The notes beneath the pieces were generated by a model. That model saw only the letters and a program-made list of their open reading frames with translations. It did not search any database and had not been told where the DNA came from. The position numbers and the translations under genes were made by a program. Shown piece by piece: positions 1,850-53,279 of a DNA stretch of 64,000 nucleotides; within the stretch, counting starts at the first letter, position 1, and each line of letters starts with the position of its first letter. Origin of the DNA: a virus. The stretch lies in the IMG/VR virus record IMGVR_UViG_3300044950_000375, positions 1 to 64,000 of that record, one strand, 5' to 3'.

Positions 1850-2176
1850 ATGGCATTCATCCAAGATCCCCCTAAACCCAAACATTGGCAACCGTACCAA
1901 GTCAAATTCATTGATGGTAAGGCAGTGGCGTTTCGTGATGTTATAGTATACACTATCCGCATGGGCGATGTTGACGATCCAGATTTGTATGTGGCTCAAC
2001 CCATATATGAATGGCAAGAAAGTGATGCTGGTAAGTTTATTATGGAACACGCTGTGGAAAAACCTTACTGGCATAGAACTAATGACATTGCCAGTTACGG
2101 ACATCGTTATGATATTGTGGCCAGACTGAGCGAACAAAATGAAACATTCTGGACACTTAAATGGGGAAACAAATGA
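1850..2176 (+). CDS. hypothetical phage protein
   Basis: 108-aa ORF directly after the promoter; ATGA overlap with the next gene. Confidence 0.75.
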   Translation: MAFIQDPPKPKHWQPYQVKFIDGKAVAFRDVIVYTIRMGDVDDPDLYVAQPIYEWQESDAGKFIMEHAVEKPYWHRTNDIASYGHRYDIVARLSEQNETFWTLKWGNK

Positions 2177-3141
2177 AAATATTAGTAACAGGAGGCATGG
2201 GCCTCATTGGGCACAATGTGGTACAACGTCTTAATCGACTGGACCATTTGGTCAGCATTGTTGACAATGCAACTAACTATGGTATTATTCCGCAGGCTGA
2301 AATTGATTACTTGATGGAAGAACGAGGGATGAAGATTGGCTGTCAGCACTTGTACAAGGCTTCGATTGAATCAGCTGACACAATTGACTATGTGATCAGA
2401 GTGCAACAACCTGAAGTGATTGTACACATGGCCAGCTTTCCCAGACAGAAAGTTGTCAATGCCAACCCTGCACACGGCGCCGATGTGATGATGCGTGGCC
2501 TGATCAACGTTCTTGAGAGTGCCAAAAGATACGGTGTTAGACGTTTTGTGTACATGTCAAGCTCAATGGTATACGGAGACTTTGCGGATCAGGTCACAGA
2601 AGATGCCCCATGCAGTCCAATTGGACAGTACGGCATTATGAAACTTGCAGGAGAATGGTTGGTAAAAGACTATGCTAGACGCACAGGAATGGAATATGTT
2701 ATTTTACGCCCCTCGGCGGTATACGGTCCACTGGATGTGGAAGATCGTGTTGTGGCAAAATTTATGCTCCGAGCCATGCGTGGTCAAGTTCTCAGTGTTA
2801 ACGGCGCATCTGAAACACTCGACTTCACCTACGTTGATGACGCAGCGGATGGCGTTGTGGCGGCTGCACTGGTACCGGGTGCTGCGAACAACACGTTTAA
2901 CATTACAAAATCTCATTCAGTTTCGCTATTACAGGCCGCAGAAATGATTGTTAAAATTGTGGGTTCCGGCACAATAGAATGCCGAGACAAGGACGCAGAC
3001 TTTCCCAGCCGGGGCGCACTAAATATCGATAAGGCCAGACAGATACTGGGCTTTGATCCCAAGGTCGATGTTGAAGAAGGATTTCAAAATTACTACCACT
3101 GGCTTGACAATTCCGTTTACTGGTCTCCGAAAACAGTATAA
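2173..3141 (+). CDS. NAD-dependent nucleotide-sugar epimerase/dehydratase (extended SDR)
   Basis: MKILVTGGMGLIG Rossmann motif, SSSMVYG, YGIMK (YxxxK), RPSAVYGP, DFTYVDD. Start placed at ATG 2173 because of the ATGA overlap. Confidence 0.92.
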   Translation: MKILVTGGMGLIGHNVVQRLNRLDHLVSIVDNATNYGIIPQAEIDYLMEERGMKIGCQHLYKASIESADTIDYVIRVQQPEVIVHMASFPRQKVVNANPAHGADVMMRGLINVLESAKRYGVRRFVYMSSSMVYGDFADQVTEDAPCSPIGQYGIMKLAGEWLVKDYARRTGMEYVILRPSAVYGPLDVEDRVVAKFMLRAMRGQVLSVNGASETLDFTYVDDAADGVVAAALVPGAANNTFNITKSHSVSLLQAAEMIVKIVGSGTIECRDKDADFPSRGALNIDKARQILGFDPKVDVEEGFQNYYHWLDNSVYWSPKTV

Positions 3142-4171
3142 CAATCTCCGCCAGGAGATCCTGGACGTAACTGATGAAGTTTTGCGTTCGGGTCAGCTGA
3201 TGGACGGCAACTATACTGCTGAGTTTGCTCATTGGATCAGCAGAAAGAACGGTGTCAAGTATGCTACCTTGTGCCACTCAGGCACACAGGCACTAGAGAT
3301 CATTGCTGAATACTTTAGAAGCAAGATCAGCATCACTCCACCCACTGTGGTCATACCTGCGCTGACCTATCCTGCCACTGCTAATGCTTGGATTCGAGCC
3401 GGCTGGAATATCTACATTTTGGACACAGACAACCATGGACAAATGGACTATAGAAAACTGCCCCAGGACCTGAGTTATCAAGCAGTGTGTCTAGTTGGAC
3501 TATATGGTCAGAGTGTTCATCAACATTGGCGCAATCATGGAGACATCATTGTGGAAGATGCCGCACAGCATTGGTTGGCCGACAACTGCCACAGACACAG
3601 CGAGTCAGCTGCAATAAGTTTTGACCCTACAAAAAACTTTGCCAACTATGGCAATGGTGGTGCTGTAGTGACCAACAGATATGAACTGCAAGAGTTTGCA
3701 AGAGATTATGTGAACAACGGCAAACATCTCCGGCACAGCGAAATAGGCACCAACAGTCGCATGAGTGAGGTGGATTGTGCGCAAATGATGATCAAAACCC
3801 GGCACTTGGCTGCATGGCAAAGTCGTAGAAGTACCATTGCTGCCTATTGGATGAACCGCTTGGAAAAGTCACCCGTACGATCATTGATTGACAAAAGCAA
3901 TTTTGACAAGCATTGTTTCCACAAGTTTGTGATTGAAGTGGATCAACGAGATATTGTGCAACGCAATCTCTCTTTGCGTAAGATTGAGACCAAGATTCAC
4001 TATGCTGAGCCTTTACAAGAACTGCCTGTGTTCCAACAATACCAAGGTCCAGACATGCTGAGTGCCAGTTATGCACTCAGCCGTAGATGTTTGAGTTTGC
4101 CTATCTACTCTGAGCTCACAGACTTAGAAGTAGAGTACATCATTGATCAGTTGTTAGACTGCGCCGCATAA
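3068..4171 (+). CDS. DegT/DnrJ/EryC1/StrS family PLP-dependent sugar aminotransferase
   Basis: SGTQAL, IVEDAAQ, SFDPTKNF (PLP Lys), GNGGAVVT, NSRMSE, LSLPIY. Start uncertain (3053 TTG, 3068 ATG or 3104 TTG). Confidence 0.92.
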   Translation: MLKKDFKITTTGLTIPFTGLRKQYNNLRQEILDVTDEVLRSGQLMDGNYTAEFAHWISRKNGVKYATLCHSGTQALEIIAEYFRSKISITPPTVVIPALTYPATANAWIRAGWNIYILDTDNHGQMDYRKLPQDLSYQAVCLVGLYGQSVHQHWRNHGDIIVEDAAQHWLADNCHRHSESAAISFDPTKNFANYGNGGAVVTNRYELQEFARDYVNNGKHLRHSEIGTNSRMSEVDCAQMMIKTRHLAAWQSRRSTIAAYWMNRLEKSPVRSLIDKSNFDKHCFHKFVIEVDQRDIVQRNLSLRKIETKIHYAEPLQELPVFQQYQGPDMLSASYALSRRCLSLPIYSELTDLEVEYIIDQLLDCAA

Positions 4172-7100
4172 ACGCATAACTAGCCAACCACGCCCAATCA
4201 TAACTCTTTCGCAGTTCTGCAAAGTCTCCATTGACTGAGTTGTAATATTCTTCAGCATCTTCTGCACCAAGTCGGCTCCATTGCGGATCTGCTTCGTCGC
4301 TGTTGATATCAAGCCATTTGTTCAAGCGGTATTCACTTTCCACATCAGGCAAAGTGGTCATCAGTTTAATTACTTCACGGAAAGCAGTGCGCCAGGCCAT
4401 CCACGGTGAGTCAGTATACCAGGCTGTGCCTGACAAGATGGGTACTACTTCGTGTGGCTGGTCTAGTGTGAAGTCCAAGCCTTGTCCTGTGTTTTCTAGT
4501 GCCAGTTGTTTATTATAAGCAATCATGGCCTGGTGTCCGTATATCAATCCGTTGAGAGGATTCTCAGCATGAAAGATATAGTGCTTGGCTTGTTGCATGC
4601 GATCCGGTTGCCAGTTCCAGTCAAATTCTTTATTGACCTGCAACTTAGCAAATACTGCAAAGAACCAAGGTGTACAACTGACCTGTGCAGCAGCATGATA
4701 AGCAGCCACACGCCCATTCACACCATCCACACGGTGCAGTCTATTTTCTAAATTACAAGTCGCACTGGCTAGATGTGCAAAGTGTCGATCAGCGTTGATT
4801 TCGCCATTGCTTATAAACACAATATCTAATGGCTTGTCTTTCAACATTCGTCGTGTTTTGTCTATGTGCGGATAGTCATACAACTGTGTCTTGATAAAGG
4901 GCACAGCCACTTTAGGCACAACCACACTGCCAGCACCTGAACTTACAGGCACAATGGTCTTGGTTTCTTGACGCCATAGTGAGACTGTGACCAAGGCTTG
5001 ATCCACATAATCTGTTGTGGTAAACAATGCCAACGGTCCAGACCAATCTGTGTTCTTGACTGCATCAACTTGGCTATCTTCGGCATGCACAATTACCGGT
5101 ATTGGCCGGCGTGGCACCTTGCGCCGGGACACATAGTTTACTGAATACCATTCTAGCAATTGTTTCTTTTCTGCTCGTTCAGCAAAGGTAGGCACATGCA
5201 TGTAGAATGTGTCCCCAAATTTTTGAGTGTCGCTGGGAAACACATGCAGCATGGTGCTTTGCCACTTCTCTGGGTGCCAGGAGAAGTCAAAGTTGCTGTA
5301 GTCACAGATACTGGAGCATACCCACACATGTTCATGTGTGCCCACAAGACTCTTGGCCAGTCGAATTAGTGTGTCGCGATAGTTATCAAAATATCTTATG
5401 CGTTTGAAAGTGTTAGGTATATTGCCAGCATTGCCATCCAAGTGATCAATCTCAACAATGGGCACAGCTTCGGCTGAGACTTCGGCTCGCATCATATCCA
5501 CATACTTGACTTCACTAGCGCCTGGCACACGATATTGAGGACCACCTGTCTTTTGGTGCTGTGTAGCAAACTGATAGATGTATGGCGGCGACCCTGGATC
5601 TGGTACCCAAGAGAAATCCATGTCTCGAATATCAACATTGTCAGGAATGTGCCATAGTGTCATGTCTGCTGGCAATTCAGCAACAGATGAATCCATGTAC
5701 TTGCGCTCGGTAGCACCTGGCATGCGATACTCCACGGTGGGCATTACTTCAGCTGAATGCCATTGGTTACCAAACACATAAATGTAAGGCGGGTCACCTG
5801 GATCTGGTACCCAAGAATAATCCATATCGCTTTCAACTACATTATACCAAGGTCGATTGGGGTTCTCAGGCAACTTGGCTTTCGGTTCGTCCATGTACTT
5901 GATGTCTGTAGCACCCGGCATGTCATATTCAACTGTGGGCATGATCTCTGCAGCATGCCATTGATTACCAAAAACATACTTGTAAGGTGGCGAACCTGGA
6001 TCTGGTTCCCATGACCAATCAAAGTCACAGGAACGATGTGTTTGAAACTTTTCTGGATTGCCACGTCGACGTGCTTTGGGCTGATCCATGTACTTGATTT
6101 CTGTGGCTGCACCAACTCGATACTGCAATGCTGGACGCTGTTCGGGCGTGAGCCATTGATTGCCAAACACATAAACATAAGGAGGATCAGTGGGGTTGGG
6201 CCTCCACGAGTAATCAAACTCTACAATATCGTCTATCAATTCAAAAGCACCGGGATTGTGTGCTACTTTGGCCGTAATGTCGTCCACATACTTGATTTCT
6301 GTTGCGCCATCCGCATGATAGGCCACAGTGGGTTCGTAAACTGCTGGGTTCCATTGGTTGCCAAACACATAGATATACGGCGGATCAAACGGATTAGGCT
6401 CCCACGAATAATCAAACTCTTCCGTGTTGATATGCACACGCCATTGATTGCCCGAGTCGGGTAAACGACATGTGCGACGATCCATGTATTTGATTTCTGT
6501 TGCACCATCCACATGATATCGCAAACTGGCTTTGAACTCTGGTGGGTTCCATTGATTACCAAACTGGTAGATATAAGGCGGGTCTTTGGGATTAGGTAAC
6601 CAAGTCCAATCCCAGGCGCTATCGTCAATGTCTTCGCAGAATTCCCAATTGCCCATGCAACTGCCTAACTCAGGTTGTGGTCCATCTACGTATTTGATTT
6701 CTGTTGCACCGGGTACTGTGTATGACACAGTGGGCATGATCTCGCCAGGCCAATGTTGATTGCCCCACACATAGATATATGGTGGGTCTCCGGGATCAGG
6801 TACCCAGCTAAAATCCCATCGTTTGATATATTCGTGCATGGTCCAATTGGTTTTGTCTTCAACTAATGTTGCTGTCATGTCCATGTACTTGCGTTCTGTT
6901 GCACCAGGCACATGATATTCCACAGTGGGCATGATCTCACTGGGCCAATGTTGATTGCCAAACACATAGACATAAGGTGGATCCAATGGATGCGGACTCC
7001 ACGACCAATTCCAACTGTTTTCGTCTATAGCATGCAACACCTGCCAGTTTTCTCTTTGAGATCGATTGGGAATGATTTCACTGTGAAAGTTCAATTGATC

Positions 7101-7346
7101 AGTAAGTTCTTTTGGAACCAAATAAGTTCCTGAATAATCGTGCCATTGGCTGGGCCAGGTGTGAATTTGTTTGGCTTGCCAGGGCTTGGGTTCAAAAAGC
7201 CAATCCCAGCCCGAGTAATCACATAAGTAATTTACCCACCAAAAGTACCTGGTGGTGCTCAATTGCCGTGCATGTTCAATACTATCAGCCTCACGCTCAT
7301 GCACAAACAAATTAGGCTTAGGCCCTGAATAAAAAATATCAAACAT
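4140..7346 (-). CDS. multi-repeat protein with degenerate GT-A-like glycosyltransferase domains
   Basis: 1068 aa with 8 tandem ~66-aa repeats. The C-terminal domain (DIVFIS...RVDGVNG...NPLNGLIYG...AWRTAFREVIKL) is paralogous to 27544-28476. Confidence 0.8.
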   Translation of the reverse strand: MFDIFYSGPKPNLFVHEREADSIEHARQLSTTRYFWWVNYLCDYSGWDWLFEPKPWQAKQIHTWPSQWHDYSGTYLVPKELTDQLNFHSEIIPNRSQRENWQVLHAIDENSWNWSWSPHPLDPPYVYVFGNQHWPSEIMPTVEYHVPGATERKYMDMTATLVEDKTNWTMHEYIKRWDFSWVPDPGDPPYIYVWGNQHWPGEIMPTVSYTVPGATEIKYVDGPQPELGSCMGNWEFCEDIDDSAWDWTWLPNPKDPPYIYQFGNQWNPPEFKASLRYHVDGATEIKYMDRRTCRLPDSGNQWRVHINTEEFDYSWEPNPFDPPYIYVFGNQWNPAVYEPTVAYHADGATEIKYVDDITAKVAHNPGAFELIDDIVEFDYSWRPNPTDPPYVYVFGNQWLTPEQRPALQYRVGAATEIKYMDQPKARRRGNPEKFQTHRSCDFDWSWEPDPGSPPYKYVFGNQWHAAEIMPTVEYDMPGATDIKYMDEPKAKLPENPNRPWYNVVESDMDYSWVPDPGDPPYIYVFGNQWHSAEVMPTVEYRMPGATERKYMDSSVAELPADMTLWHIPDNVDIRDMDFSWVPDPGSPPYIYQFATQHQKTGGPQYRVPGASEVKYVDMMRAEVSAEAVPIVEIDHLDGNAGNIPNTFKRIRYFDNYRDTLIRLAKSLVGTHEHVWVCSSICDYSNFDFSWHPEKWQSTMLHVFPSDTQKFGDTFYMHVPTFAERAEKKQLLEWYSVNYVSRRKVPRRPIPVIVHAEDSQVDAVKNTDWSGPLALFTTTDYVDQALVTVSLWRQETKTIVPVSSGAGSVVVPKVAVPFIKTQLYDYPHIDKTRRMLKDKPLDIVFISNGEINADRHFAHLASATCNLENRLHRVDGVNGRVAAYHAAAQVSCTPWFFAVFAKLQVNKEFDWNWQPDRMQQAKHYIFHAENPLNGLIYGHQAMIAYNKQLALENTGQGLDFTLDQPHEVVPILSGTAWYTDSPWMAWRTAFREVIKLMTTLPDVESEYRLNKWLDINSDEADPQWSRLGAEDAEEYYNSVNGDFAELRKSYDWAWLASYAFMRRSLTTDQ
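5470..7050 (-). repeat. 8 tandem protein-coding repeats of ~66 aa (~198 bp), consensus W..(D/N)(F/Y/W)SWxPxPxDPPYIYVFGNQW...PTVEY.VPGATEIKYMD
   Basis: Visible directly in the translation; DNA copies are diverged at synonymous positions. Boundaries approximate. Confidence 0.9.
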
Positions 7347-8457
7347 GGTTAGAATAGACGAAATTTACAACAACACCTTTTGGCCTTGGATCAAACACAA
7401 TAGGCCAGGCATTAGAATGTTCATGTGTGATCCATTTGGACGCAGTGATCCTGATAGTGTGGTAAATTATGGCAGCGATGATATACACGAACACAATTAT
7501 ATATTCTTTTTTGACCAAGAGCCAATACATTTGAACATACACACCGCCACATTTGACGAAGTGCGTAATGTCAAAAATTATGATATTCACTATCATAACC
7601 CAGATAATTTACCAATTGGTGCTATATGCACCAGTGAACGTGACAGCGACAATGTAACTGCAATATGTGCCCAGTATGGTTGGAAAAGTTACTATTACTT
7701 TTTTCACGGCTGGGCAGCACTAGATTGGTATCGTGGCTACGACAAAACATTTTTAATCAAACCCATTGAGGAACGAGCTCCTACTAAAACATTCCTGGCA
7801 CCCAATAGAATCATTGCCGGAGAACGCAGACACAGATTGGAAATGCTGTATCACATATTCAAACTGGGCATGACTGACAACCATATCTCATGTCCGGCTG
7901 TGTGTCCTGTAGAAAACATCAGCATAGTAGACGCTGCCCGGCCGTTAGTAGATCAGTATCCAGATATTCAAGATGTGTTTCGAGCACAGCAATTACCCAT
8001 CAACTTTGCTGGCGAAACTGATCATCCCATGCATTCGTGTTGGCTCAGTTTGTTTGACCAGGCTGCTGATAGTCTGTTATACTTGGTTACAGAGACTGTG
8101 GCCACAGGCCGTAGACATCACATTACAGAAAAAACATTCAAACCAATTGCCATGGGCATGCCGTTTGTGTTGGTGGCCACGCAAGGCAGTTTGGAGTATT
8201 TGCGCAGTTATGGATTTAAGACTTTTGGGCATGTATGGGACGAGTCCTATGATGCCATCCAGGATGATCGCGATAGAATCCGTGCGGTTGCGAGCTTGCT
8301 TCAAACTCTTTGTGACCTTTCCGTTGAGGAACGAATTGCACTATACCAGGATTGTCATGAGACGATTGAACACAATTGGAATCACTTTTACAATGGCGGT
8401 TTTGAAGCAATTCTTTGGGAAGAACTACAGGGTATGTTGAATGGCATTGAGCTTTAA
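7345..8457 (+). CDS. putative glycosyltransferase, GT10/GT-B-like (paralog 1)
   Basis: C-terminal motif LVTET...ITEKTFKPIAMGMPF...LRSYGFKTF..WDESYD, resembling the fucosyltransferase (F/L)EN...TEK motif. Confidence 0.6.
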   Translation: MVRIDEIYNNTFWPWIKHNRPGIRMFMCDPFGRSDPDSVVNYGSDDIHEHNYIFFFDQEPIHLNIHTATFDEVRNVKNYDIHYHNPDNLPIGAICTSERDSDNVTAICAQYGWKSYYYFFHGWAALDWYRGYDKTFLIKPIEERAPTKTFLAPNRIIAGERRHRLEMLYHIFKLGMTDNHISCPAVCPVENISIVDAARPLVDQYPDIQDVFRAQQLPINFAGETDHPMHSCWLSLFDQAADSLLYLVTETVATGRRHHITEKTFKPIAMGMPFVLVATQGSLEYLRSYGFKTFGHVWDESYDAIQDDRDRIRAVASLLQTLCDLSVEERIALYQDCHETIEHNWNHFYNGGFEAILWEELQGMLNGIEL

Positions 8458-9634
8458 TTTTGTTGTTGATCGTGTGATACACGACAAAATATATCCACAT
8501 CTTGCTACCTGGTCTGCTGAACCCTACACACCTGAGTGGCGTCAGTTTGGCAGTAAATGGCCATACACCACTCCCTTACGCATACAAGAGTATTGCAAAC
8601 TGCATGAAGTTCCGATCAACACATATTCCATTGAAGACTATCCTGCTGGCAGCTTCTATCCCGTTGCCATCGGATTCTTTGACTTTGGCATAGATTATTT
8701 TGATCTATTGCCTTCCGCTGTGTTTGCCGCAGTTGCCAGTAACCAACTAAAGATATTGTTTTTCTATCACGAAGGCGATAATCCTTATCGTATCAAACAG
8801 CGACTGGATGAACTGGTTGAGTTGCATCAGTGTTCCACCAACTGCTATGTGTTTGTGAGTTCAAACTCTACTGCTCAAAATATACCTGGCTTTGTGGCCT
8901 TTCAAGACAGTGAGCTTTGGTACTATCAACGAAATCACAGCAACCCGCCGTTGCCTATACCTCACAAACCAAGAGATAAAGATTTTACTGCATTAGCAAG
9001 AACACACAAATGGTGGCGTGCTATAGCGCTCACTGACTTGCATTCACAAGAACTGCTTGCCAACAGTTACTGGAGTTACTGCGAAACAACCCAAGCCACT
9101 GATATTGAAGACTGTCCTATTGAAGTAGACTATCTCAAGTTGAAACAAGCCACACTGGATTTTGTAGCAGGCGGTCCTTACATAAGCGACGAACTCACAC
9201 AAGACGAACGCAACGATCACAGTCTCAACTCAGAACCCAAATACTTTATGGGTTCCTACTGCAATATTGTGTTGGAAAGTCAATTTGACTATGATCAAAG
9301 CGGAGGCATATTGTTGAGTGAAAAAACATTCAAACCCATCAAACACGGACAGATGTTTTTTATAGCAGGTGGAGCAGGCAGTCTACAAGTGTTGCGTGAC
9401 ATGGGCTACAGAACATTTGATTCGGTACTAGACAACCGATATGATCGCGAACCTGATAATACCATGCGTTGGATCAAACTCAGCGAGGCCATTGCCCAAG
9501 CACATGCCCAAGGTCTAAGCACTTTGTTTGAACGGTGTAGAGCAGACATTGAATACAACCAACATTTATTCATGCAGATCAAAACTCCACGCTTAAATAC
9601 CCTTATAGAGCAAATAAATGAACAACATCGTTAA
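8441..9634 (+). CDS. putative glycosyltransferase, GT10/GT-B-like (paralog 2)
   Basis: IVLES...LSEKTFKPIKHGQMF...LRDMGYRTF..LDNRYD. Confidence 0.6.
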   Translation: MALSFNFVVDRVIHDKIYPHLATWSAEPYTPEWRQFGSKWPYTTPLRIQEYCKLHEVPINTYSIEDYPAGSFYPVAIGFFDFGIDYFDLLPSAVFAAVASNQLKILFFYHEGDNPYRIKQRLDELVELHQCSTNCYVFVSSNSTAQNIPGFVAFQDSELWYYQRNHSNPPLPIPHKPRDKDFTALARTHKWWRAIALTDLHSQELLANSYWSYCETTQATDIEDCPIEVDYLKLKQATLDFVAGGPYISDELTQDERNDHSLNSEPKYFMGSYCNIVLESQFDYDQSGGILLSEKTFKPIKHGQMFFIAGGAGSLQVLRDMGYRTFDSVLDNRYDREPDNTMRWIKLSEAIAQAHAQGLSTLFERCRADIEYNQHLFMQIKTPRLNTLIEQINEQHR

Positions 9635-22774: not shown

Positions 22775-23829
22775 TTGTTTGAGTTGATAAATTGAAAGAA
22801 TCTCGCGGGCAACTGGTCCATGTGCTGACGAGCAAACTCTTGAAGATGCTGTTGATTGTATTTACAAATGGATTCCGCTGCCTGGACAAAAGCCCCAAGG
22901 TCTTGACTGCACAGGTCCTGGATAGTGTGGACCATGCGATCCATGCGATCTTGGTTGTTATCTAACTGATCAAATGTTTCATCAATCAAACTGTGAAACG
23001 TTTGGAACCCAAGGTCACGCAGATCACGATAGAATCCGTAATTGGCCACAGCAACAAACGGGTGGCCAATAGCAAGTGGTTTACACATTTTTTCTGAAAA
23101 CAAACTCCACGGATAGTTATAAACAGTTTCTGTAACTACTGAAAAATAAGTGTCAATATATGGCTCAGGTTTAATGTAAATTTCTCCCCATTCGTTATTG
23201 AACAATTGTGCTTTTACATACCCTGATTCCACAGCAGTGCCGTGATATCTATCAACTTCGTAATAGGCAGGCAACAATCGAATTGGCCTTAGATGATCAT
23301 CAAGATTGGTCCACAGAGCACCATCAAGCAGGCCCAATTGCTCCAGCTGATTTAGTATAGCACATCTATGCGGTCGACCGCGACCATTTAGGCACAAAAA
23401 AGAATAGGGTTTTGTGAGTTTGGAAAAGATTTCGGGTGTGCGTTTGCAGGCTTCTTTATTTTCTTCATATCTAAAAGGTTGTGTTAGAAAATGTTCAAAC
23501 AGCATGCAATTGTATTCAGGAGGCATGCGACCACCACCTATCAGTTGAATTTGGCCGCCAAGCACCAGATCTTCAACGCCATATTTTCTTAGGTGCCATA
23601 ATAAAGTTTCTGAACCTTCTGCAGGATTGGCAAATATAATTTGACATTGCTCACACATGCTTCTCACACGATGGCCGTTCAGTCGCAGTTGCTCACGACC
23701 TATCAAATACGTGGCTCCAGGCACCACAGGTAGTTTTTCAAATTCATAATACAATTCGTCAGCGTAAGGGTGCAAAAACTCAGTGAGCTCAGTGCAAGCG
23801 TCAAGATAAAACATTAACGGTGACTCCAA
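22771..23829 (-). CDS. putative glycosyltransferase, GT10/GT-B-like (paralog 4)
   Basis: FLCLNGR.RPHR; FSVVTET...FSEKMCKPLAIGHPF...LRDLGFQTF..IDETFD. Confidence 0.6.
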   Translation of the reverse strand: MESPLMFYLDACTELTEFLHPYADELYYEFEKLPVVPGATYLIGREQLRLNGHRVRSMCEQCQIIFANPAEGSETLLWHLRKYGVEDLVLGGQIQLIGGGRMPPEYNCMLFEHFLTQPFRYEENKEACKRTPEIFSKLTKPYSFLCLNGRGRPHRCAILNQLEQLGLLDGALWTNLDDHLRPIRLLPAYYEVDRYHGTAVESGYVKAQLFNNEWGEIYIKPEPYIDTYFSVVTETVYNYPWSLFSEKMCKPLAIGHPFVAVANYGFYRDLRDLGFQTFHSLIDETFDQLDNNQDRMDRMVHTIQDLCSQDLGAFVQAAESICKYNQQHLQEFARQHMDQLPARFFQFINSNK

Positions 23830-25211
23830 TATTCACATTCTGCCCACCATGACTTCATTTCGGGAAAGGTTTTTAAAAAGTCAGTGCCTCTGCGTCGATC
23901 GTGTTCCTGAAAGAATCTATAAAAGTCTGCCTTGGCTTGGGAATGATCTTTGTCCTGCCCTGCTCGCATCCACGCAATATCTCTATCCAACCGTGCTATT
24001 TCGTAGTCTTTGAATCCGTGGAATGGATCTTCGGGGGTTTCACTCTGTCGTATCATCCAGGCCCACAAGTGTTCCAGCCGGTCGGCATAGGCTTCAGGTA
24101 GGATTTGCAAGCTCTGCCAAGCAGGTTCACGCAGTACAGGTGTGTCAAACCACACACGCTGATAGGTCCGTGAGTATGTGTTACGCAAGCCCAAGATGCC
24201 AGCAAACAAGTTTTCCAAGCTGGTCACTGATAAGTTGTTCATAGTAACAATAAATGTTAAGCTATTGTAACTAGGCACTTCTGTTAGGAATTGATTTACT
24301 CTATCCCATAGCAGGTCAAAATCAAGTCCGTGGCGCATGTATTCTGCTTGTGAGCCCCATCCGTCTAAGCTCACATACTGCATGAAATGTTCGATACGCC
24401 CATCGCATAGTTGTTTCACATAGCCCAGATATTTTTGCCATGACTTTTCATCCACAGAGAAGTTTGATGTAACATTCAAATGCAGTTTGGCAGACGGATT
24501 GGCCAACACATGATCAAACACTCTATATGTGTTTTTATCTAGCAGGGGTTCCCCGCCTGTCATGCGGAAGTGTACAAGCTCGGGATACAGAGTAGGCCAC
24601 CACTCCCAGAATGCTTCTACATAAGGGTTATGCTCTCTAACCGGTATAACCCGGCGATCTCCACCAAAATGCCCAGGATCATTGTGAACACGAGCAGTAG
24701 GGTAGCCGCCCGATCGGTCCACTTCTTGTTGCCAGCTGCTAGAGAATTGCGGACTGCAATAACTGCACATGAGATTACACACATTATTAAAATTAACCTC
24801 AACGTAGCTAGGGATAACGTCATTTTCTTCTCCTGTAGAGTTCTGGATCTGTGCAAAGTCCACAGCGGCCCAGGGCTCGCCTGATCGATAGTGTCTATCA
24901 CTCAGTTTGTTTTCTGCTTCCATGTTCCAGCAGTATTCACACTCTGCGGGCTTTTCGTTCTGTAGCATCATCACACGTTGCGCTTTCTTGTGCGGTGTGT
25001 TGTGCAAGGATCCAGGATTGGCTGCAAGATTTTCCACAGGTATCTTGTGCAGTGGCGGATGGTAACAGGAGTTGTTGAGTCCTGTGGGCAAGTGCAGGCT
25101 GACCTGTTTCCATTTAGCAAGACACAGCGCAGGTCCTAGATTCTCTTTCATCTGTTCAGCAGAGTTTAAGAAACGACTTTTGTTGTCTACTGTTTCGTCG
25201 CCTTTGTTCAT
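23814..25211 (-). CDS. radical SAM protein (6)
   Basis: CLAKW...SCYH...CEYC; CNLMCSYC; TGGEPL. Confidence 0.9.
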   Translation of the reverse strand: MNKGDETVDNKSRFLNSAEQMKENLGPALCLAKWKQVSLHLPTGLNNSCYHPPLHKIPVENLAANPGSLHNTPHKKAQRVMMLQNEKPAECEYCWNMEAENKLSDRHYRSGEPWAAVDFAQIQNSTGEENDVIPSYVEVNFNNVCNLMCSYCSPQFSSSWQQEVDRSGGYPTARVHNDPGHFGGDRRVIPVREHNPYVEAFWEWWPTLYPELVHFRMTGGEPLLDKNTYRVFDHVLANPSAKLHLNVTSNFSVDEKSWQKYLGYVKQLCDGRIEHFMQYVSLDGWGSQAEYMRHGLDFDLLWDRVNQFLTEVPSYNSLTFIVTMNNLSVTSLENLFAGILGLRNTYSRTYQRVWFDTPVLREPAWQSLQILPEAYADRLEHLWAWMIRQSETPEDPFHGFKDYEIARLDRDIAWMRAGQDKDHSQAKADFYRFFQEHDRRRGTDFLKTFPEMKSWWAECEYWSHR

Positions 25212-25759
25212 ATTGTCAATAGTTGTTGTTTGTAAAGATCATCAATTGGTGCCTCAGCACCATAGTTTTCATAGCAATCCCATGCAAAATCAAACCAGAA
25301 ATTTTTAATATCCAATTCTTTGCGCATGATGTCACCAAAGGGTGTGGTATCTGTAGCAATGTCAATTAGTACATCGCAGTCCCAGTCTTGTGTTTTATAG
25401 TAGTCTTGATGCCACACAATCATGTCAAACATATGAGATACTTGTTGTTGTTGACTGCAAGGCTGCCAATGATATTTCATTTCTACTTCCCATTCTCTAC
25501 AAAGACTTGGTTTCAAATCAAATTTAATTTTTCTTATTTCGTGACCTGGCCATAATCGCTTGATGTTGGCAGTGTTTAATGTATGAGTTATTTGTATTGT
25601 ATTAACGTCAAACAATTGAGTTGTAATACAAGTATCCAATGCATATCGTATGGGCATGGAATCATTGTGCATGTGAGCACCACGTTTGCCAAAAAATCGA
25701 TTTTGCAAAAACAATTTGTAACGATGGCCTCCGCTGCCCGGATAAAATCCAACAATCAT
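25208..25759 (-). CDS. hypothetical protein, possible sulfotransferase/P-loop-like fold
   Basis: 183 aa; N-terminal beta-strand plus YPGSGGH loop; ATGA-coupled on both sides. Confidence 0.5.
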   Translation of the reverse strand: MIVGFYPGSGGHRYKLFLQNRFFGKRGAHMHNDSMPIRYALDTCITTQLFDVNTIQITHTLNTANIKRLWPGHEIRKIKFDLKPSLCREWEVEMKYHWQPCSQQQQVSHMFDMIVWHQDYYKTQDWDCDVLIDIATDTTPFGDIMRKELDIKNFWFDFAWDCYENYGAEAPIDDLYKQQLLTI

Positions 25760-26847
25760 AGATTGCCTTTGAGATCACTGTTTAACAGTTTTTGTTGAGA
25801 AATGTCTGCATAAGTTAGTGTGTTGCCGTGATTGTGTGTCCAAGCACTGTGCTCAATCAGTGCTTTATGATTCATTTGGTCTGCTGTGTAAGGCAAAGCA
25901 TATGAACTGGGATTGATTTGTGTCCATTTATTGTAGTATTCAAGGCAGGCTGGTGAATTGGCAATCAACTGTGTTTTTTGTTGCAGTGTATGAAGCTTGA
26001 TTGGTACTCCAGAAACCAGTATGCCCTGATCTTGAAGATCCTGAATAGCTATTCTACAACGAGTATAAAGATCAATATTGCTAGACATAAATTCTTTTTC
26101 TTCATTGGAGAACACATGATCAAAAGGCACCAAGCTCAGCAAAAAGTGCATGCGATTCCAATCAGTCCAGGTAATATCCCAACGATCATGCCAGGTCCGA
26201 CCTGGCATGGGTTTTTGAAAAACTCTTAGGTTCAAAATATACTGCTCAAGATCAGCAAGATCTCTTTCATATTCAAAATAACTGTTGACTTGAAAGTGAC
26301 GGTCTACCCATTCCATGTACTCCTGATACTGATTTAGATATTTTTCAATCATTTCTGCTTGCACAGTTACTGGATTGGATAAAATTTTGTTGTAGATTGT
26401 GTGTTTTTCTTCAAACGAGTAAACGTTTAGTTTTTTAGCTTCCACTGCAATGCACCAACTCATTACATGTTCAAACAAATTCTTTCGACGAGCTGCAATA
26501 ATATAAAAGTTTTCATTGAGGTATTTGTAAAACGCCAGTTGATCGTTTGTGCTGTCTTGACGCTTCTTTAGGTGATAATGTGCCAGACGACTCACAATAT
26601 CGTGATCACAGTTATCAATCATACCAGTTATGGTTTGCAAAGTTTGATGGTAGCCCCAGCCGTCTTGTTTTTTGCCTATAACTGATTGGTTGAACGTTTC
26701 GTTGTGATAACTTACTAGGCCGTTGGTCAACTCATGCAGATTAATTGTTAGTGGATTGTAGTTTTCATTGATGTTTGCATAGATTGTGATCAATCGTTGC
26801 AATAATGTTGACCCCACTCGATCCGGAGTAAGTATTAGAACATTCAT
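25756..26847 (-). CDS. sulfotransferase-like protein (Stf0-type motifs)
   Basis: ILTPDRVGSTLL resembles the 5'-PSB loop; RRKNLFEHVMSW resembles the 3'-PB motif; FEYE. Confidence 0.55.
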   Translation of the reverse strand: MNVLILTPDRVGSTLLQRLITIYANINENYNPLTINLHELTNGLVSYHNETFNQSVIGKKQDGWGYHQTLQTITGMIDNCDHDIVSRLAHYHLKKRQDSTNDQLAFYKYLNENFYIIAARRKNLFEHVMSWCIAVEAKKLNVYSFEEKHTIYNKILSNPVTVQAEMIEKYLNQYQEYMEWVDRHFQVNSYFEYERDLADLEQYILNLRVFQKPMPGRTWHDRWDITWTDWNRMHFLLSLVPFDHVFSNEEKEFMSSNIDLYTRCRIAIQDLQDQGILVSGVPIKLHTLQQKTQLIANSPACLEYYNKWTQINPSSYALPYTADQMNHKALIEHSAWTHNHGNTLTYADISQQKLLNSDLKGNL

Positions 26848-26858
26848 TAAAAATATTT

Positions 26859-27566
26859 ATGTACCTAGATTTTGTTTCTCAAAAGATCAACATTCCATTT
26901 TATGCCAATTTACAGACTGACATCCTGGGCATGGACAGCAAACAGCACTGCTTAAACGCAGAACTATTTAATGCTTGGCCCTTAATAACTTATCAATTCA
27001 ATCAAGTGGGATTTCGCACTCACAGCATTGACAAATTTGATCCTAACGCAGTTTTAGTGCTAGGCGATAGTTTTACGCTTGGCCTAGGGGTCAATAGTGC
27101 TGATCGTTTTTCAGACATCATTGAACAGCGTATAAAACATCAGGTGCTAAACTTCAGTTTAAATGGGGCAAGCAATGATTGGATTGCGCGAAAACTCCAA
27201 CAACTATTGACCGTGTTTCAACCAAGAGCTATTGTTGTACATTATACATTCAGTCATCGCAGAGAACGACCTAATTTGGATTGGTTAGACGACGAGCGCA
27301 CTGAATGTGAACCATTTTATTCATCTCAAGAAAATTTTGATAACTGGGCCGCAAACTTTAACAATATTTGTAGTATGACCAAGCATGTTGCATTAATTCA
27401 TAGCTTTATACCAAACTGGCATGATCACACTGTGAACTATTCTAATTTTGGACTCAATGTACTAACACCACAACATCAAATTGATCATGCTCGTGACGGA
27501 TTTCATTACGGGCCGCTTACACATCAACTGTTGGCTGATAAAATTACCAGCCTTCTTGCTGCCTAA
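26859..27566 (+). CDS. SGNH/GDSL hydrolase or O-acyltransferase-like protein
   Basis: VLGDSFTLG, NFSLNGASND, C-terminal DGFHYG (DxxH). Confidence 0.75.
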   Translation: MYLDFVSQKINIPFYANLQTDILGMDSKQHCLNAELFNAWPLITYQFNQVGFRTHSIDKFDPNAVLVLGDSFTLGLGVNSADRFSDIIEQRIKHQVLNFSLNGASNDWIARKLQQLLTVFQPRAIVVHYTFSHRRERPNLDWLDDERTECEPFYSSQENFDNWAANFNNICSMTKHVALIHSFIPNWHDHTVNYSNFGLNVLTPQHQIDHARDGFHYGPLTHQLLADKITSLLAA

Positions 27567-28476
27567 TAACATCAATCTCGCGGGTCATTATGCCTTGGTT
27601 GTGCCAGTTGGATCTGTAGTGCTTCTTAAAGAACTCGCTTTGTTCTGCTTCCATCACAATCATGGGCAAGCCTAACTGTGTGTTTAAATCCTCTGCCAGT
27701 CGTCCGGCCAACAGTCTAGGTTCTGACGTTTCCACAGTTCGCCACAGTTCAGCTAATGCTTCAAAGTTTTGTACTTGAGTGTGATCCCACTGTGTCAGCA
27801 TGGTCATGTATGTGCCTTGACGTGCGCCGGCAATGGCCCAGTAGCCGTGCTCTGCGTCAGCACCCACGTTGTGCCAAATGGTCAGGTGATCCAAGTTGCG
27901 TTGATGCACACGATCTTGAAACTCTGCTGTGGTGGGTTTGCGTCCACGATCCAAGCACATCTTAACACCTTCACGAAAACCTGCACGCCAAGCATGAAAT
28001 GCTGATCCATTTGGGTAGGTAGTCGAGTAGCAGTTATACATGGGCCAGTATAAGGGATCAAAACAAAATTCTACTTGTGTTTCTGCTGTGCCGTCTGTGG
28101 CTTCGTGTGTACGCATGTTCTGTACAAAATCCTTTGTCCAACTACTGAGGCCGCCGTTGCCATACATCAATCCGTTGATATGGTTACGTGCCCGCCACCG
28201 GAACACAGCACTCTCATATTCTTTGCTAGAAAAAACAAGTGTTTGATTAAAGAACGCCGGATCGGGGAGATTGTCGCCATCGATGAGAATGAATCTATCC
28301 GTACTACTCGCCCGGGCTGCCGCTTTGTGAGCCGCATCGCTCCCCAGAACACCGTCCACCCTTCGAGCCCAAGGCACCATATTCCTAATCTTGATCCAAA
28401 ATTCTTCTCGTTGTGGTTCATCGTATGTCAAGTATATGCAGTCTAAATCTGCTATGTCAATTTGATTCAAGGCCAT
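27544..28476 (-). CDS. putative GT-A fold glycosyltransferase
   Basis: DCIYLTYDEP, RVDGVLGSDAAHKAAA, FILIDGDN (DxD), NGLMYGNGG, AWRAGFREGVKM. Confidence 0.7.
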   Translation of the reverse strand: MALNQIDIADLDCIYLTYDEPQREEFWIKIRNMVPWARRVDGVLGSDAAHKAAARASSTDRFILIDGDNLPDPAFFNQTLVFSSKEYESAVFRWRARNHINGLMYGNGGLSSWTKDFVQNMRTHEATDGTAETQVEFCFDPLYWPMYNCYSTTYPNGSAFHAWRAGFREGVKMCLDRGRKPTTAEFQDRVHQRNLDHLTIWHNVGADAEHGYWAIAGARQGTYMTMLTQWDHTQVQNFEALAELWRTVETSEPRLLAGRLAEDLNTQLGLPMIVMEAEQSEFFKKHYRSNWHNQGIMTREIDVIRQQEGW

Positions 28477-28792
28477 ATGTTTGTTTGCTCCATGGTGTTC
28501 CGTGTTGAGTGACTACAACCGCAACATTTTGCGGGTGGCACTGTGTACCTGTATTGCCGGGCACAAGTTTGTCTGATGTGCGAGTAGTAATGTATTTGAG
28601 CTTGCGGTCTACCACACGCACATTGGCAGGTGCCAGACCAAATGTTTCAGCATCAATGTCGATGTAATTACCTGGCAGGTCCTCCATGCTGTAATAAACT
28701 GGTTTGCCTGCATCATTGTAATACAAACGATAGAATACTGGTAACGGCTCGGGCGCAGAATGTAAAATGTCCCAAAACTCTTCAGGTGTCAT
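28457..28792 (-). CDS. hypothetical protein
   Basis: Likely start MTPEEFW at 28792 (ATGA overlap); YRLYYNDAG motif. Confidence 0.65.
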   Translation of the reverse strand: MTPEEFWDILHSAPEPLPVFYRLYYNDAGKPVYYSMEDLPGNYIDIDAETFGLAPANVRVVDRKLKYITTRTSDKLVPGNTGTQCHPQNVAVVVTQHGTPWSKQTYGLESN

Positions 28793-29559
28793 TGATGCCA
28801 GTCCTTTACATGATAGTGAAAGGCACCCCATTGTGTTTGAGTTTGTATACGCATGGGATCCATTTCCCACACTAACTCATTGGTCCATTGCTGTGTCTTT
28901 GTGCCGGCATGTGCTTGTTTCATGTGTACAATCCGTGGGTATGTAGCAAATGGCATGGTCACTAGTTCTCTGCCAATTATGTCTGCTGCCATTGCGTACA
29001 CAAGATCAGTGCTGGGTACATCTTCGGGAAATTTAATCAGCTTTTTAAACTCTGACCAATTGGCAAATATATCACGCACCAGTACAAAGAAATCTCTGGC
29101 TGTTTCACTCAATCGCCAGTAAGTTATAGCATTGTACACATCTGGTAAATTGTTAGCATCAAACACTTTTCTATAGTGCCTGGCTGTGCTGACCTGATCC
29201 TGCCATGTTCTGCAACCCGTAGATATCACAACATCTCGATGTCTAAACATAGTCCACCAGTGATCAATCGAACTGGCAATCATCATGTCTGCTTCTAGTT
29301 TGATAGTTTCGCGATAAGGCGAATTAAAAAACACTTGCCAGTCGTTTGCATACAAGTTATCGCGATCGATGTTCTCAATCACACGATAGTAATTGTACAA
29401 GGGATCGTTGGCATGAGTCTTGTCCGTGATCAAGCAAACACTGGCATGAGGATTCCATTGTTTGATTGTTTTTGTCAATGTTCTAGCACAATCCAAGTAG
29501 TCAACTTGGGGCGTGTTCAAGGCCATGATCACATAGCCTTGTTCTTCTATGGGTTTCAA
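28789..29559 (-). CDS. GT8/GT-A-like glycosyltransferase-related protein
   Basis: SPYRETIKLEADM (ExD), STDLVYAMA, IVHMK; paralog of 29501-30346. Confidence 0.6.
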   Translation of the reverse strand: MKPIEEQGYVIMALNTPQVDYLDCARTLTKTIKQWNPHASVCLITDKTHANDPLYNYYRVIENIDRDNLYANDWQVFFNSPYRETIKLEADMMIASSIDHWWTMFRHRDVVISTGCRTWQDQVSTARHYRKVFDANNLPDVYNAITYWRLSETARDFFVLVRDIFANWSEFKKLIKFPEDVPSTDLVYAMAADIIGRELVTMPFATYPRIVHMKQAHAGTKTQQWTNELVWEMDPMRIQTQTQWGAFHYHVKDWHQ

Positions 29560-30346
29560 CTATTGCTCCTAAATCTCTTTTGCCCATGGCATGAAAGTCC
29601 AGCCCAACAATTGAGACTGTTTTACATTTACCTTGTGCATCTTGATACTCAATATTCCAGAACGTTTCGTTATCAAGCGTTAGTTTGTTTTCGGGTACTA
29701 CACTGGGCATGCCCCAGGGTATGGCATCTACTTTTAGTGTCTGGCCACTCACAATACCCAATGCTATGCTTAGTGCATAGTCGTTTCTGTATGTGGGTTG
29801 TGAGATGTGATAGAGATCTCTGTAGTGCTTCCAGTTCTCACGAATCATCTGCATGGCATCAAATATGTACTGTGCGGTGTTTGATCTGCGAAACATCATC
29901 ACAGTAGCCCAGTACATGGGAAATTGGTATGTGCCAAAAGTATTTAAAAATTCTTCCTCAGGCCTAGCAAGATTGTATGCTGATCTAAAGCACATGAAAT
30001 CTTGTGGGCTGTCAAGCACCACTTTTAAATCTTCACTATTGATCACAAAGTCAGCATCCAACACTAGAGTTTGCTCCCAAGGTGACAAGTTGTAAGCATC
30101 TACTCGGTTGCTGTTATGCCAAGGTACATGATCTTGTATATCACCAAACCAGCGTGAGTTTTCGCCCAACGGATCAGCATATATCACTTGATCAAACACA
30201 GTTTCGTTGCCGGCAGCAGGATTGTTTGTGACCACTGCTACAGGAATGTTTATGAACTGCTGGACTCGTTCAGCACAAAAGGCCGCCATGTCAAGATAGC
30301 GTGTGTGTTCAGTATCAAATGCAAAGATCAGTGCGCCAGTAGTCAT
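29501..30346 (-). CDS. GT8/GT-A-like glycosyltransferase
   Basis: LSPWEQTLVLDADF (DxD), WATVMMF, RNDYALSIA, FHAMGK. Confidence 0.65.
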   Translation of the reverse strand: MTTGALIFAFDTEHTRYLDMAAFCAERVQQFINIPVAVVTNNPAAGNETVFDQVIYADPLGENSRWFGDIQDHVPWHNSNRVDAYNLSPWEQTLVLDADFVINSEDLKVVLDSPQDFMCFRSAYNLARPEEEFLNTFGTYQFPMYWATVMMFRRSNTAQYIFDAMQMIRENWKHYRDLYHISQPTYRNDYALSIALGIVSGQTLKVDAIPWGMPSVVPENKLTLDNETFWNIEYQDAQGKCKTVSIVGLDFHAMGKRDLGAIVETHRRTRLCDHGLEHAPS

Positions 30347-30648: not shown

Positions 30649-30654
30649 GTTACG

Positions 30655-52840: not shown

Positions 52841-52869
52841 TGCGTCTGGGCCTTGTGTTCTTTATCTGT

Positions 52870-53271: not shown

Positions 53272-53279
53272 AGCAATAT

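Follow-up and report, generated by a model that had tools for sequence, protein, structure and literature searches.

The presence in a bacteriophage genome of about 28 kb of sugar-building and sugar-editing genes, lying directly against the genes of the tail, raises the question of which molecule these enzymes make and to what it is attached. We addressed this question in a stretch of 64,000 nucleotides (hereafter the window), namely the opening 64 kb of a linear IMG/VR contig of 81.5 kb (record IMGVR_UViG_3300044950_000375, positions 1 to 64,000; CheckV completeness 23%), in which 27 open reading frames (ORFs), one of them a micro-ORF of 33 aa, occupy positions 2161-30346. Enzyme families, predicted structures and synteny support the view that this island is a sugar-building and sugar-tailoring system. 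What it decorates is less certain; our preferred reading, to which we give a probability of about one half, is that fibre-like virion proteins are glycosylated and tailored late, in the cytosol.

The tight coupling of the genes is real, since neighbours are spaced by -89 to +94 nt with overlaps in most pairs (mostly of 4-20 nt), and a preliminary description of this DNA, which had counted about 25 tightly coupled genes at 2173-30346, was right on this point. One radical S-adenosylmethionine (SAM) protein of the island finds 232 IMG/VR loci, and all locus counts out of 80 given below refer to the best 80 of these 232, which lie at 77-94% identity on contigs reaching 364 kb in length. Synteny of the block is kept in these 80 loci, and a minimal version of it occurs in the distant cultured Ralstonia phage RsoM2USA. 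Two classes of genes can be told apart, designated here by the first number of their coordinates where this is shorter. The backbone, each gene of which is found in 66-80 of the 80 loci, consists of five radical SAM genes, the 22771-type glycosyltransferase (GT) of the GT-B fold, 12791-13828, the carbamoyltransferase, the GT-A-fold enzyme, the pair of paralogs that we call A5 and two genes for small proteins. Cassette genes, by comparison, occur in 3-16 of the 80 loci and comprise an aminotransferase of the DegT type with its short-chain dehydrogenase/reductase (SDR), an Fcl-like SDR with 16053 and the 16649-type GT-B, the 18821-type radical SAM gene, 25208, 25756, 26859 and 10655. The SDR-SGNH-GT-B cassette must be mobile within the lineage, because it stands at a second locus in the complete relative G001, where a mini-island (locus L111 5568-11695; 209.6-215.7 kb of the genome) combines an SDR 73% identical to 15097-16056 with a 16053-like gene, a 16649-like GT-B, a 26859-like gene and two radical SAM genes of the island's family. 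The island is very common and takes up to ~8% of the coding capacity per genome, and another of its genes belongs to a group of more than 8000 protein clusters at 90% identity.

The most striking component of the island is its set of radical SAM enzymes. Six had been claimed in the preliminary description, and all six score above the cut-off of the NCBIfam family NF033640 (N_Twi_rSAM), with 207-386 bits against 170, each carrying CxxxCxxC. They are encoded on the minus strand at 13821-15110 (278 bits; motif CNFKCRTC), 17604-18824 (333 bits), 18821-20197 (207 bits), 20194-21453 (386 bits, the nearest to the family consensus), 21443-22774 (288 bits) and 23814-25211 (319 bits, the type that is kept as ORF349 of RsoM2USA). 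The six paralogs share four invariant N-terminal Cys residues, the CxxxCxxC and a GGEP motif, and their Pfam SPASM match sits N-terminal of the Radical_SAM match. All are backbone genes except 18821-20197, a variable one whose type has a median identity of 30% over the 80 loci and reaches 90% in locus L084, close orthologs being found in few; the product of 20194-21453, at the other extreme, is 77-94% identical in the best 80 of the 232 loci. Complete relatives encode 6-10 copies of N_Twi_rSAM, five of them in the island, and such an expansion is no part of the description of NF033640. In the literature that we searched, no paper names NF033640, no characterised member of it was found, and no paper combines jumbo phage, radical SAM and glycosyltransferase. 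A seventh N_Twi_rSAM gene lies off the island at 62347-63960 (plus strand), beside 61454-62350; its product carries an N-terminal extension of ~130 aa and matches the family with 269 bits over 62734-63894. Just past the window stand two further radical SAM genes (G000 68263-69114 and 69108-70118; locus L085 4263-5114 and 5108-6118), one with a C-terminal SPASM domain, which adjoin Mre11/Rad50-like genes and a gene for a SegE-like GIY-YIG endonuclease.

This family is not confined to phages. Among 300 sampled Bacteroidota genomes, three (G085, G157 and G289; loci L100-L105) encode N_Twi_rSAM, each with 2-4 adjacent copies. Carbamoyltransferase homologs stand beside them in two of the three loci, and the neighbours in the two loci that were annotated include several GDSL proteins, 4-7 dioxygenases of the PhyH type and a WelO5-like enzyme (halogenase); B12-radical SAM enzymes, methyltransferases, a polysaccharide deacetylase and a weak GT11 match are found there as well. 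Because the bacterial loci show the same neighbours, it is not only in phages that N_Twi_rSAM keeps company with carbamoyltransferases and SGNH proteins. These loci favour one shared tailoring pathway, the substrate of which may be a glycan, a peptide or a metabolite. A second partner is suggested by gene fusion. In the island, 25208-25759 (minus strand) encodes a 183-aa protein with the motif YPGSGGHRY; in three relatives, a 25208-like domain (YPGxGGNRY) is fused in frame to a 23814-type radical SAM enzyme (L015 5678-7606, L019 5600-7549 and L030 5611-7560). The N-terminal part of these ORFs of 642-649 aa is 27-33% identical to 25208-25759 (E down to 3e-18), and the fusions therefore constitute a Rosetta-stone link between the 25208-like domain and the 23814-type radical SAM enzyme.

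As enzymes that would assemble a sugar chain, at least seven GT-like proteins of three kinds had been proposed. Four of them, encoded at 7345-8457 and 8441-9634 (plus strand) and at 16649-17617 and 22771-23829 (minus strand), have a common C-terminal domain and escape conventional searches: profiles run against the PDB found nothing for them, and neither did Pfam with E values up to 10. An AlphaFold2 (AF2) model of the 22771-23829 product, computed from a 51-sequence alignment from related loci, reached a predicted local distance difference test score (pLDDT) of 95.3; in an exhaustive VIA search its top 50 entries were all GT-B glycosyltransferases (Z 13.7-9.9 over 240-295 aligned residues), and the best Foldseek matches were likewise GT-B enzymes, at weak scores. 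On the strength of this model and of paralogy, we regard the predicted GT-B fold of this family as settled. Its closer affinities are less distinct. Fucosyltransferases of GT10 score well (mango FUT13 Z 11.6, FUT9 11.5, H. pylori FucT and FUT11 both 11.2), level with many GT-B families, and the CAZy GT10/PF00852 hidden Markov model (HMM) gave no match to the paralogs at E up to 10. PF00852 was likewise absent from the results for 151 Bacteroidota genomes, but it was missing from every control too, so that this search carries no weight. A search of the viral structure library BFVD returned proteins of uncultured phages and glycosyltransferases of giant viruses, among them Mimivirus L138, a Mimivirus "GT family 10" protein (5e-5) and a Solivirus alpha-1,3-fucosyltransferase (1e-4). 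A TEK motif, which we presume to be a feature of GT10, is a lead only.

The second kind is represented by the backbone gene 27544-28476 (minus strand), whose product belongs to an unannotated family (A4) of 1355 representatives at 50% clustering in which tandem fusions are frequent. Its AF2 model, built from 64 diverse members (pLDDT 94.8), shows an N-terminal portion of 156 residues with the GT-A/nucleotide-diphospho-sugar transferase fold (VIA Z 9.2-6.7 over residues 4-159) followed by a helical C-terminal half. The best Foldseek match is PBCV-1 A64R (2p6w, 1.7e-4), ahead of GT2 enzymes including HAS, TarP, SunS and ArnC, and the two Asp residues of the DxD motif (D66 and D68) are nearly invariant in the 64 members. 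Searches with PDB profiles found no match for A4; the Pfam GT2 families PF00535 and PF13641 produced 14 family-by-member matches among the 64 members, all sub-threshold (best E 0.0018-0.03), and a profile search with the A4 alignment retrieved close clade members only, without Pfam domains. A relative of this enzyme is embedded in the 1068-aa product of 4140-7346 (minus strand), where about eight Trp/Pro/Tyr-rich repeats of ~66 aa precede a GT-A-like domain; this C-terminus is paralogous to 27544-28476 (BLASTP 8e-8), with a gap falling exactly at the DxD stretch FILIDGDN. The gene and its divergent neighbour 7345-8457 share a single CATG (7344-7347) that provides both start codons, so that no intergenic DNA separates them. 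Modelling of the GT-like ORFs, in sum, gave a GT-B and a GT-A fold, both at a pLDDT of about 95. Four GT-B proteins, one GT-A protein and one copy lacking DxD thus stand from the proposed set, whereas the third kind, the A5 pair (28789-29559 and 29501-30346, minus strand), rests on GT-A/GT8-like motifs recognised by eye (ALIFAFNN..DY and LDADYVV in the first paralog): PDB profile searches gave no match, and hhalign against A4, A8 and two small GT8 alignments drawn from the genomes searched gave probabilities of at most 6%.

Enzymes that prepare and modify sugars surround these transferases. Two nucleoside diphosphate (NDP)-sugar epimerases had been claimed and both are SDR proteins with PF01370 scores of 155 bits. 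The one encoded at 2161-3141 (plus strand; 2.6e-45), an epimerase or dehydratase whose best NCBIfam match is dTDP-glucose 4,6-dehydratase (sub-threshold), forms a rare cassette with DegT: homologs with more than 60% coverage occur in nine of the 80 loci, mostly at 21-24% identity. The other, at 15097-16056 (minus strand; 2e-45), resembles GDP-fucose synthases (NF047922 4e-39, below the equivalog cut-off) and travels with 16053 and 16649. The DegT/DnrJ/EryC1 aminotransferase, a pyridoxal-phosphate (PLP) enzyme encoded at 3053-4171 (plus strand), is equally clear as to family (PF01041 4.9e-52, 178 bits), is PseC-like at a sub-threshold score and is present in three of the 80 loci; as its Pfam match begins at residue 32, the true start of the gene is probably near 3140. 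The amidinotransferase at 9618-10658 (plus strand), of the AGAT/StrB1/SxtG type, was missed by Pfam; a profile of 16 homologs (A6) nevertheless found human AGAT (2jdx, 2.3e-19) and StrB1 (1bwd, 5e-14) in the PDB, together with HsvA and SxtG. The AGAT match spans the N-terminal, middle and C-terminal parts in three stretches, aligning GGISCCTQD to GGFHCWTCD, which holds the catalytic Cys, and GHGDAVF to the His-Asp region; both motifs are invariant in the 16 homologs. The carbamoyltransferase gene (11212-12696, minus strand) belongs to the backbone, with homologs in 66 of the 80 loci, and its product, of NodU/CmcH type, matches both Carbam_trans_N and Carbam_trans_C above cut-off (130 and 160 bits; PF16861 6e-47, PF02543 1.6e-37); we regard it as a member of the family and not as a NodU ortholog, because the NodU equivalog score is far under its cut-off. 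The aminotransferase, amidinotransferase and carbamoyltransferase of the preliminary description are in this way borne out.

Directly coupled to the carbamoyltransferase gene by an ATGA lies a gene for a basic 33-aa peptide (MKWIK...RKRDPFIYK; 12693-12794, minus strand). It is found by tblastn in 70 of the 80 loci, the C-terminal half of the peptide is identical in the commonest variants listed, and it is a real, hitherto unannotated small gene. Its neighbour 12791-13828 (minus strand) encodes a 345-aa backbone protein, present in 71 of the 80 loci with 63 invariant columns, for which none of the libraries searched, PDB profiles included, gave a match.

The variable cassettes contain proteins whose assignment is more delicate, and the families named for them in the preliminary description are putative. 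The candidate Fe(II)/2-oxoglutarate (2OG) oxygenase, a 188-aa protein encoded at 10655-11221 (minus strand; family A10), displays H111, E113, H164 and R176 in an invariant HxE...H...RxT arrangement, as seen in three sequences only, while Pfam, NCBIfam and the PDB gave no match. The two proteins described as sulfotransferase-like, the products of 25756-26847 and 25208-25759, show suggestive motifs; for the former (363 aa, minus strand; family A9) TPDRVGSTLL and RRxNLFEHxMS are invariant, and no Pfam, NCBIfam or PDB-profile match to sulfotransferases was obtained. The sequence CATAAATA lies 8 nt upstream of the start of this gene (26848-26858). Of the two SGNH proteins proposed, 26859-27566 (plus strand) is the better founded, with a sub-threshold GDSL match (PF00657 8e-4, 20 bits against a cut-off of 23.6), the motifs GDSF and DGFH, and a BLASTP match (5e-7) to a bacterial ORF that itself matches GDSL; the 199-aa product of 16053-16652 (minus strand) remains a candidate by virtue of the GDS motif only (N-terminal ICGDSF), no HMM match being found.

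Which molecule, then, receives these sugars? The neighbours of the island offer an indication. On the minus strand, a single gene run leads from the baseplate genes through a 5022-aa protein, 33529-34152, the fibre-like protein 31715-33496, 30704-31702 and 30343-30690 into the island, and fibre gene, Ser/Thr-rich gene and island are co-directional with a spacing of -89 to +13 nt as far as 27544. The claimed adjacency to fibre and baseplate genes is thereby confirmed by the annotation of the neighbouring genes, which have PHROG matches and wedge homologs. The fibre-like virion protein of 593 aa, with GNITGGN repeats and matches to phrog_14394 and others, heads the run at 31715-33496. Behind it, 30704-31702 encodes a protein of 332 aa, 33% of which is Ser+Thr; all 46 of its homologs lie within 27-35%, where the median of the enzymes taken as background is 11%. 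The N-terminal 190 residues of this candidate acceptor weakly resemble products of PA5oct-group genes annotated as virion structural protein or tail pin, and the protein is weakly similar to ORF355 of RsoM2USA. Two small conserved proteins complete this end of the block, one of 115 aa between the fibre genes and the island (30343-30690; homolog ORF354 in RsoM2USA) and one of 137 aa (28457-28870; 70 of the 80 loci), both on the minus strand. The 5022-aa ORF (34326-49394, minus strand), between the wedge and fibre genes, has as its RsoM2USA counterpart ORF361 (2541 aa), a virion protein according to mass spectrometry.

Among 50,697 phage records, the A4 family occurs in RsoM2USA (MG752970.1) alone, and this phage also has a full-length match to the 23814-type radical SAM enzyme. 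Its genes follow in the order ORF355 (Ser/Thr-rich homolog), 354, 353 and 352 (A5 pair), 351, 350 (GT-A), 349 (radical SAM) and 348 (GT-A), all of them annotated as hypothetical, with identities of 38% for the GT-A protein and 34% for N_Twi_rSAM (to the 23814 type). This module is minimal: the 31-kb stretch that was compared has a single radical SAM gene and lacks homologs of the GT-B family as well as of the amidino- and carbamoyltransferases. ORF356, beside the module ORF348-355, was found in virions by mass spectrometry (PMC8504454). That this neighbourhood is conserved as far as the distant RsoM2USA is the best reason to believe in a joint function of the fibre-like protein and the enzymes.

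The enzymes themselves point to a soluble process. A 19-residue Kyte-Doolittle scan (threshold 1.6), crude as it is, finds no membrane segment in any island protein, and five relatives that are 97-100% complete are devoid of sugar nucleotidyltransferases (NTP_transferase); the system is therefore most simply understood as soluble and fed by NDP-sugars of the host, and a classical surface pathway on undecaprenyl phosphate (Wzx/Wzy or ABC type) is weakened by the lack of membrane segments. It is tempting to propose that NDP-sugars of the host are taken up and, in some variants, recast by the phage SDR and DegT enzymes as 6-deoxy or amino sugars. The GT-A-fold enzymes (27544, perhaps 28789/29501) and the four GT-Bs would then assemble an oligosaccharide on a phage macromolecule, the likeliest acceptor being the adjacent Ser/Thr-rich, fibre- or tail-pin-like protein 30704-31702, possibly along with other fibre proteins. 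The chain would be edited by the carbamoyltransferase, with the 33-aa peptide as its partner, by the amidinotransferase, which would convert an amine into a guanidino group, and by five to six N_Twi_rSAM enzymes assisted by the variable SGNH-, sulfotransferase- and 2OG-like proteins. The conserved backbone with its swappable cassettes, each bringing a sugar-nucleotide enzyme, a GT and a tailoring enzyme, may generate strain-specific, serotype-like glycan variants, and expression would be late, together with the preceding tail-fibre and baseplate genes. Our analysis establishes the families and folds of the enzymes, their lack of membrane segments, the gene order, its conservation and the mobility of cassettes; in the scheme built on this we infer the timing, the acceptor, the order of the reactions and all of the radical SAM chemistry. 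The decorated glycan on Ser/Thr-rich virion proteins that had been predicted for this locus is thus supported as far as the building and tailoring of sugars are concerned, by families, structure and synteny; its acceptor has indirect support, from the neighbour with 33% Ser+Thr and from the gene order of RsoM2USA.

Several points weigh against the glycosylation of fibre proteins. The evidence for the acceptor, namely proximity and composition, is circumstantial, and 30704-31702, for which PHROG gave no match, encodes a putative virion protein. Late timing depends on gene direction and on one consensus motif, the T4-late-type TATAAATA, which stands at 33526-33533 (minus strand), 30 nt upstream of the fibre gene, and elsewhere in the window only at 52870-52877 (minus strand), ~30 nt upstream of the baseplate wedge gene; two occurrences against 2.7 expected is no enrichment, and as the count is at chance level, the motif gives a mere hint of late expression. 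The fold of 27544-28476 is common to nucleotidyltransferases and its Z-scores are moderate; because the GT-A fold occurs in those enzymes too, we only infer a glycosyltransferase activity. The GT-B model, for its part, is close to the T4 DNA glucosyltransferases (beta Z 12.6, alpha Z 11.8, against a top Z of 13.7). Finally, soluble phage glycosyltransferases could act on host lipid-linked intermediates, and the published reading of similar islands favours the modification of host O-chains (PMC7029224).

These last two points lead to the possibility that the enzymes remodel a surface polysaccharide of the host (O-antigen or capsule), resulting in serotype conversion or superinfection exclusion. 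Hypervariable fibre-side islands with glycosyltransferases, lipopolysaccharide (LPS)-type sugar genes and radical SAM cassettes have been read in this way (PMC7029224), soluble glycosyltransferases normally work on lipid-linked intermediates at the cytoplasmic face, and the variability of the cassettes is like that of O-antigen loci. We nevertheless consider it unlikely: the island encodes neither a flippase nor a polymerase, no initiating phosphoglycosyltransferase and no membrane segment of any kind, its position and direction fit late structural genes and would be late for shielding an infected cell, and the structural-type Ser/Thr-rich neighbour is conserved to RsoM2USA. It seems less probable still that the product is a free glycosidic small molecule, aminoglycoside-like, with guanidino and carbamoyl groups and radical-SAM editing, that serves in infection. 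An amidinotransferase of the StrB1 type, a TobZ/NodU-type carbamoyltransferase, DegT and twitch radical SAM enzymes do echo the logic of streptomycin, tobramycin and butirosin, and the bacterial N_Twi_rSAM loci, with their 4-7 PhyH copies, WelO5-like halogenase, B12-radical SAM enzymes and methyltransferases, resemble tailoring-rich biosynthetic clusters; yet nothing recognisable as a cyclitol synthase, an exporter or a resistance gene was found, DegT and its SDR are confined to a few of the 80 loci, the minimal module of RsoM2USA lacks amidino- and carbamoyltransferases while possessing the Ser/Thr-rich protein, and the island is embedded among virion genes.

That sugars and further groups are placed on the phage DNA, as in the glucosylated hydroxymethylcytosine (hmC) of T4 and the thymidine pathways, appears to us very improbable. 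The GT-B model does align with T4 beta- and alpha-glucosyltransferases at the scores just given and with the glycosyltransferase of phage HY126 (Z 12.0), and a gene for ThyX, the flavin-dependent thymidylate synthase, lies directly upstream of the island (1158-1823, plus strand). Radical SAM and PLP enzymes, moreover, participate in known thymidine hypermodifications. The preliminary description had recognised no canonical DNA-hypermodification gene in the window, and the five relatives of 97-100% completeness agree with it: they have neither the ThyA-fold hydroxymethylase (PF00303), which the same search detected in 10 of 14 control genomes, nor TGT/DpdA (PF01702), which leaves none of the usual routes by which DNA becomes glycosylated or acquires deazapurines. 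The top 50 entries for the GT-B model in the viral structure library include none described as a T4-type DNA glucosyltransferase, the location is in the late structural region, and with eight GT-like genes the product would be an oligosaccharide, a modification not known from DNA. A last alternative keeps the fibre protein as the target and makes the radical SAM enzymes act on the polypeptide itself, by epimerisation, C-methylation or cross-linking as in ribosomally synthesised and post-translationally modified peptides (RiPPs), with glycosylation in parallel. SPASM/twitch radical SAM enzymes often modify peptides. Sub-threshold matches to StsB and other SPASM maturases, the 6-10 family copies per genome, several of them distant from any GT gene, and the bacterial loci, which pair N_Twi_rSAM with B12-radical SAM enzymes, methyltransferases and many Fe/2OG hydroxylases as in proteusin clusters, all speak in its favour. 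Against this, neither a precursor peptide nor a RiPP-recognition element was seen, the copies are found repeatedly next to GT-B, SGNH, SDR and carbamoyltransferase genes, and one radical SAM enzyme is fused to a nucleotide-binding-like domain; we hold this alternative, too, to be rather improbable.

It is worth considering in what kind of phage this island resides. Genes for the baseplate wedge, hub and virion structural proteins occupy 49394-61344, and the wedge protein has counterparts at 33-34% identity in Sinorhizobium phage Phosso, Agrobacterium phage Atu_ph07, Salicola phage SCTP-2 and E. coli phages of the PBECO4 group; from the wedge and structural gene matches the contig is therefore a fragment of a jumbo myovirus of ~350 kb, and near-complete relatives measure 343-364 kb, two of them with terminal repeats. 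Twelve lake-water metagenome runs contain half or more of the words sampled from a 7.6-kb piece of the island (17604-25211), and no RNA run is listed among the sequencing runs with this piece. The source is a freshwater jumbo myovirus related to Atu_ph07 and Rak2-type phages. A megablast search with the radical SAM block gave no match in the 50,697 phage records. The sole finds of a single-protein scan of bacterial genomes were two phage contigs in a metagenome-assembled genome (MAG) of Haliscomenobacter sp. (NZ_JBBAKG010000001.1 and ...03.1, of 183 kb and 148 kb), which belong to this phage clade and carry one island each; this binning is an artefact or, at best, a weak hint as to the host.

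The closest published parallel is the host recognition cluster (HRC) of pelagimyophages and cyanomyophages, an island beside the tail fibres whose divergence comes from cassettes gained and lost (Zaragoza-Solas et al. 2020; PMC7029224). Like the HRC, the island described here is a hypervariable segment of the structural module with glycosyltransferases, sugar-nucleotide genes and radical SAM cassettes; the likeness is one of description. The HRC was described from genomes only, in T4-like marine phages of ~150-250 kb, whereas the present island belongs to a freshwater phage of ~350 kb, and its account includes no defined backbone, no pair of amidino- and carbamoyltransferases and no analysis of the N_Twi_rSAM family. 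In one marine T4-like genome, as many as 12 radical SAM genes are on record (PMC5332604). As for the enzymes, soluble virus-encoded glycosyltransferases are shared with PBCV-1, whose A64R (PDB 2p6w) is a capsid-glycosylating enzyme, and with the fibril genes of Mimivirus; those enzymes act in the cytoplasm on virion proteins with NDP-sugars that are host-derived or virus-tailored. Compared with these systems and with that of the mycobacteriophages, identity is only 10-15%, radical SAM, amidinotransferase and carbamoyltransferase partners are lacking on their side, and virion glycosylation in the present phage is a prediction. The mycobacteriophage case, glycosylation of the capsid and tail tube, was reportedly described by Freeman et al. 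2023.

In combining amine formation, amidination, O-carbamoylation and radical SAM superfamilies, the island also recalls aminoglycoside tailoring (StrB1, TobZ/NodU, StsC/DegT, BtrN). It differs from aminoglycoside clusters by the lack of a cyclitol synthase and of a resistance and export cluster, by the absence of DegT from most relatives and by its context of virion genes; in BtrN, the auxiliary-cluster domain is C-terminal, not N-terminal. With the alpha- and beta-glucosyltransferases of T4 it shares small single-chain phage GT-B enzymes of ~350 aa, and it departs from them in a lineage without hydroxymethylase, a late instead of an early location and four paralogs accompanied by tailoring enzymes. 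What is already known, therefore, is the variable island of GT and radical SAM genes beside fibres, from genomes of marine T4-like phages, and the glycosylation of virions by virus-encoded soluble GTs elsewhere. New, as far as the literature we searched shows, are the defined backbone, the expansion of N_Twi_rSAM, the amidinotransferase and carbamoyltransferase with the 33-aa peptide, and the connection with a Ser/Thr-rich fibre-like protein, which extends to a cultured phage.

We put forward tentatively, and as a proposal that may well prove wrong, that N_Twi_rSAM is a new class of glycan-editing enzymes, and that five to seven distinct members of it put a cationic, radical-edited O-glycan on the tail-fibre proteins with the help of the guanidino-forming amidinotransferase and of a carbamoyltransferase assisted by its peptide, the cassettes creating "glyco-serotypes" that tune adsorption or evade the defences of the host. 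If this were true, both such a protein glycan and its enzymology would be undescribed for any virus. The question of the acceptor is directly testable, because the cultured RsoM2USA carries a minimal homologous module. The island also offers a tractable entry to a radical SAM family that is uncharacterised, with tandem paralogs in phages and in bacteria, and to a possible guanidino/carbamoyl sugar, while the bacterial N_Twi_rSAM loci, tailoring-rich and likewise uncharacterised, deserve a study of their own. The glycosylation of virions is established in chloroviruses, giant viruses and some mycobacteriophages and is almost unexplored in phages of aquatic bacteria. Should the fibres of these lake phages indeed be decorated, this would bear on host recognition, on the arms races between phages and their hosts in lakes and on the interpretation of hypervariable islands beside fibre genes, which are now read as modifying the O-antigen of the host.

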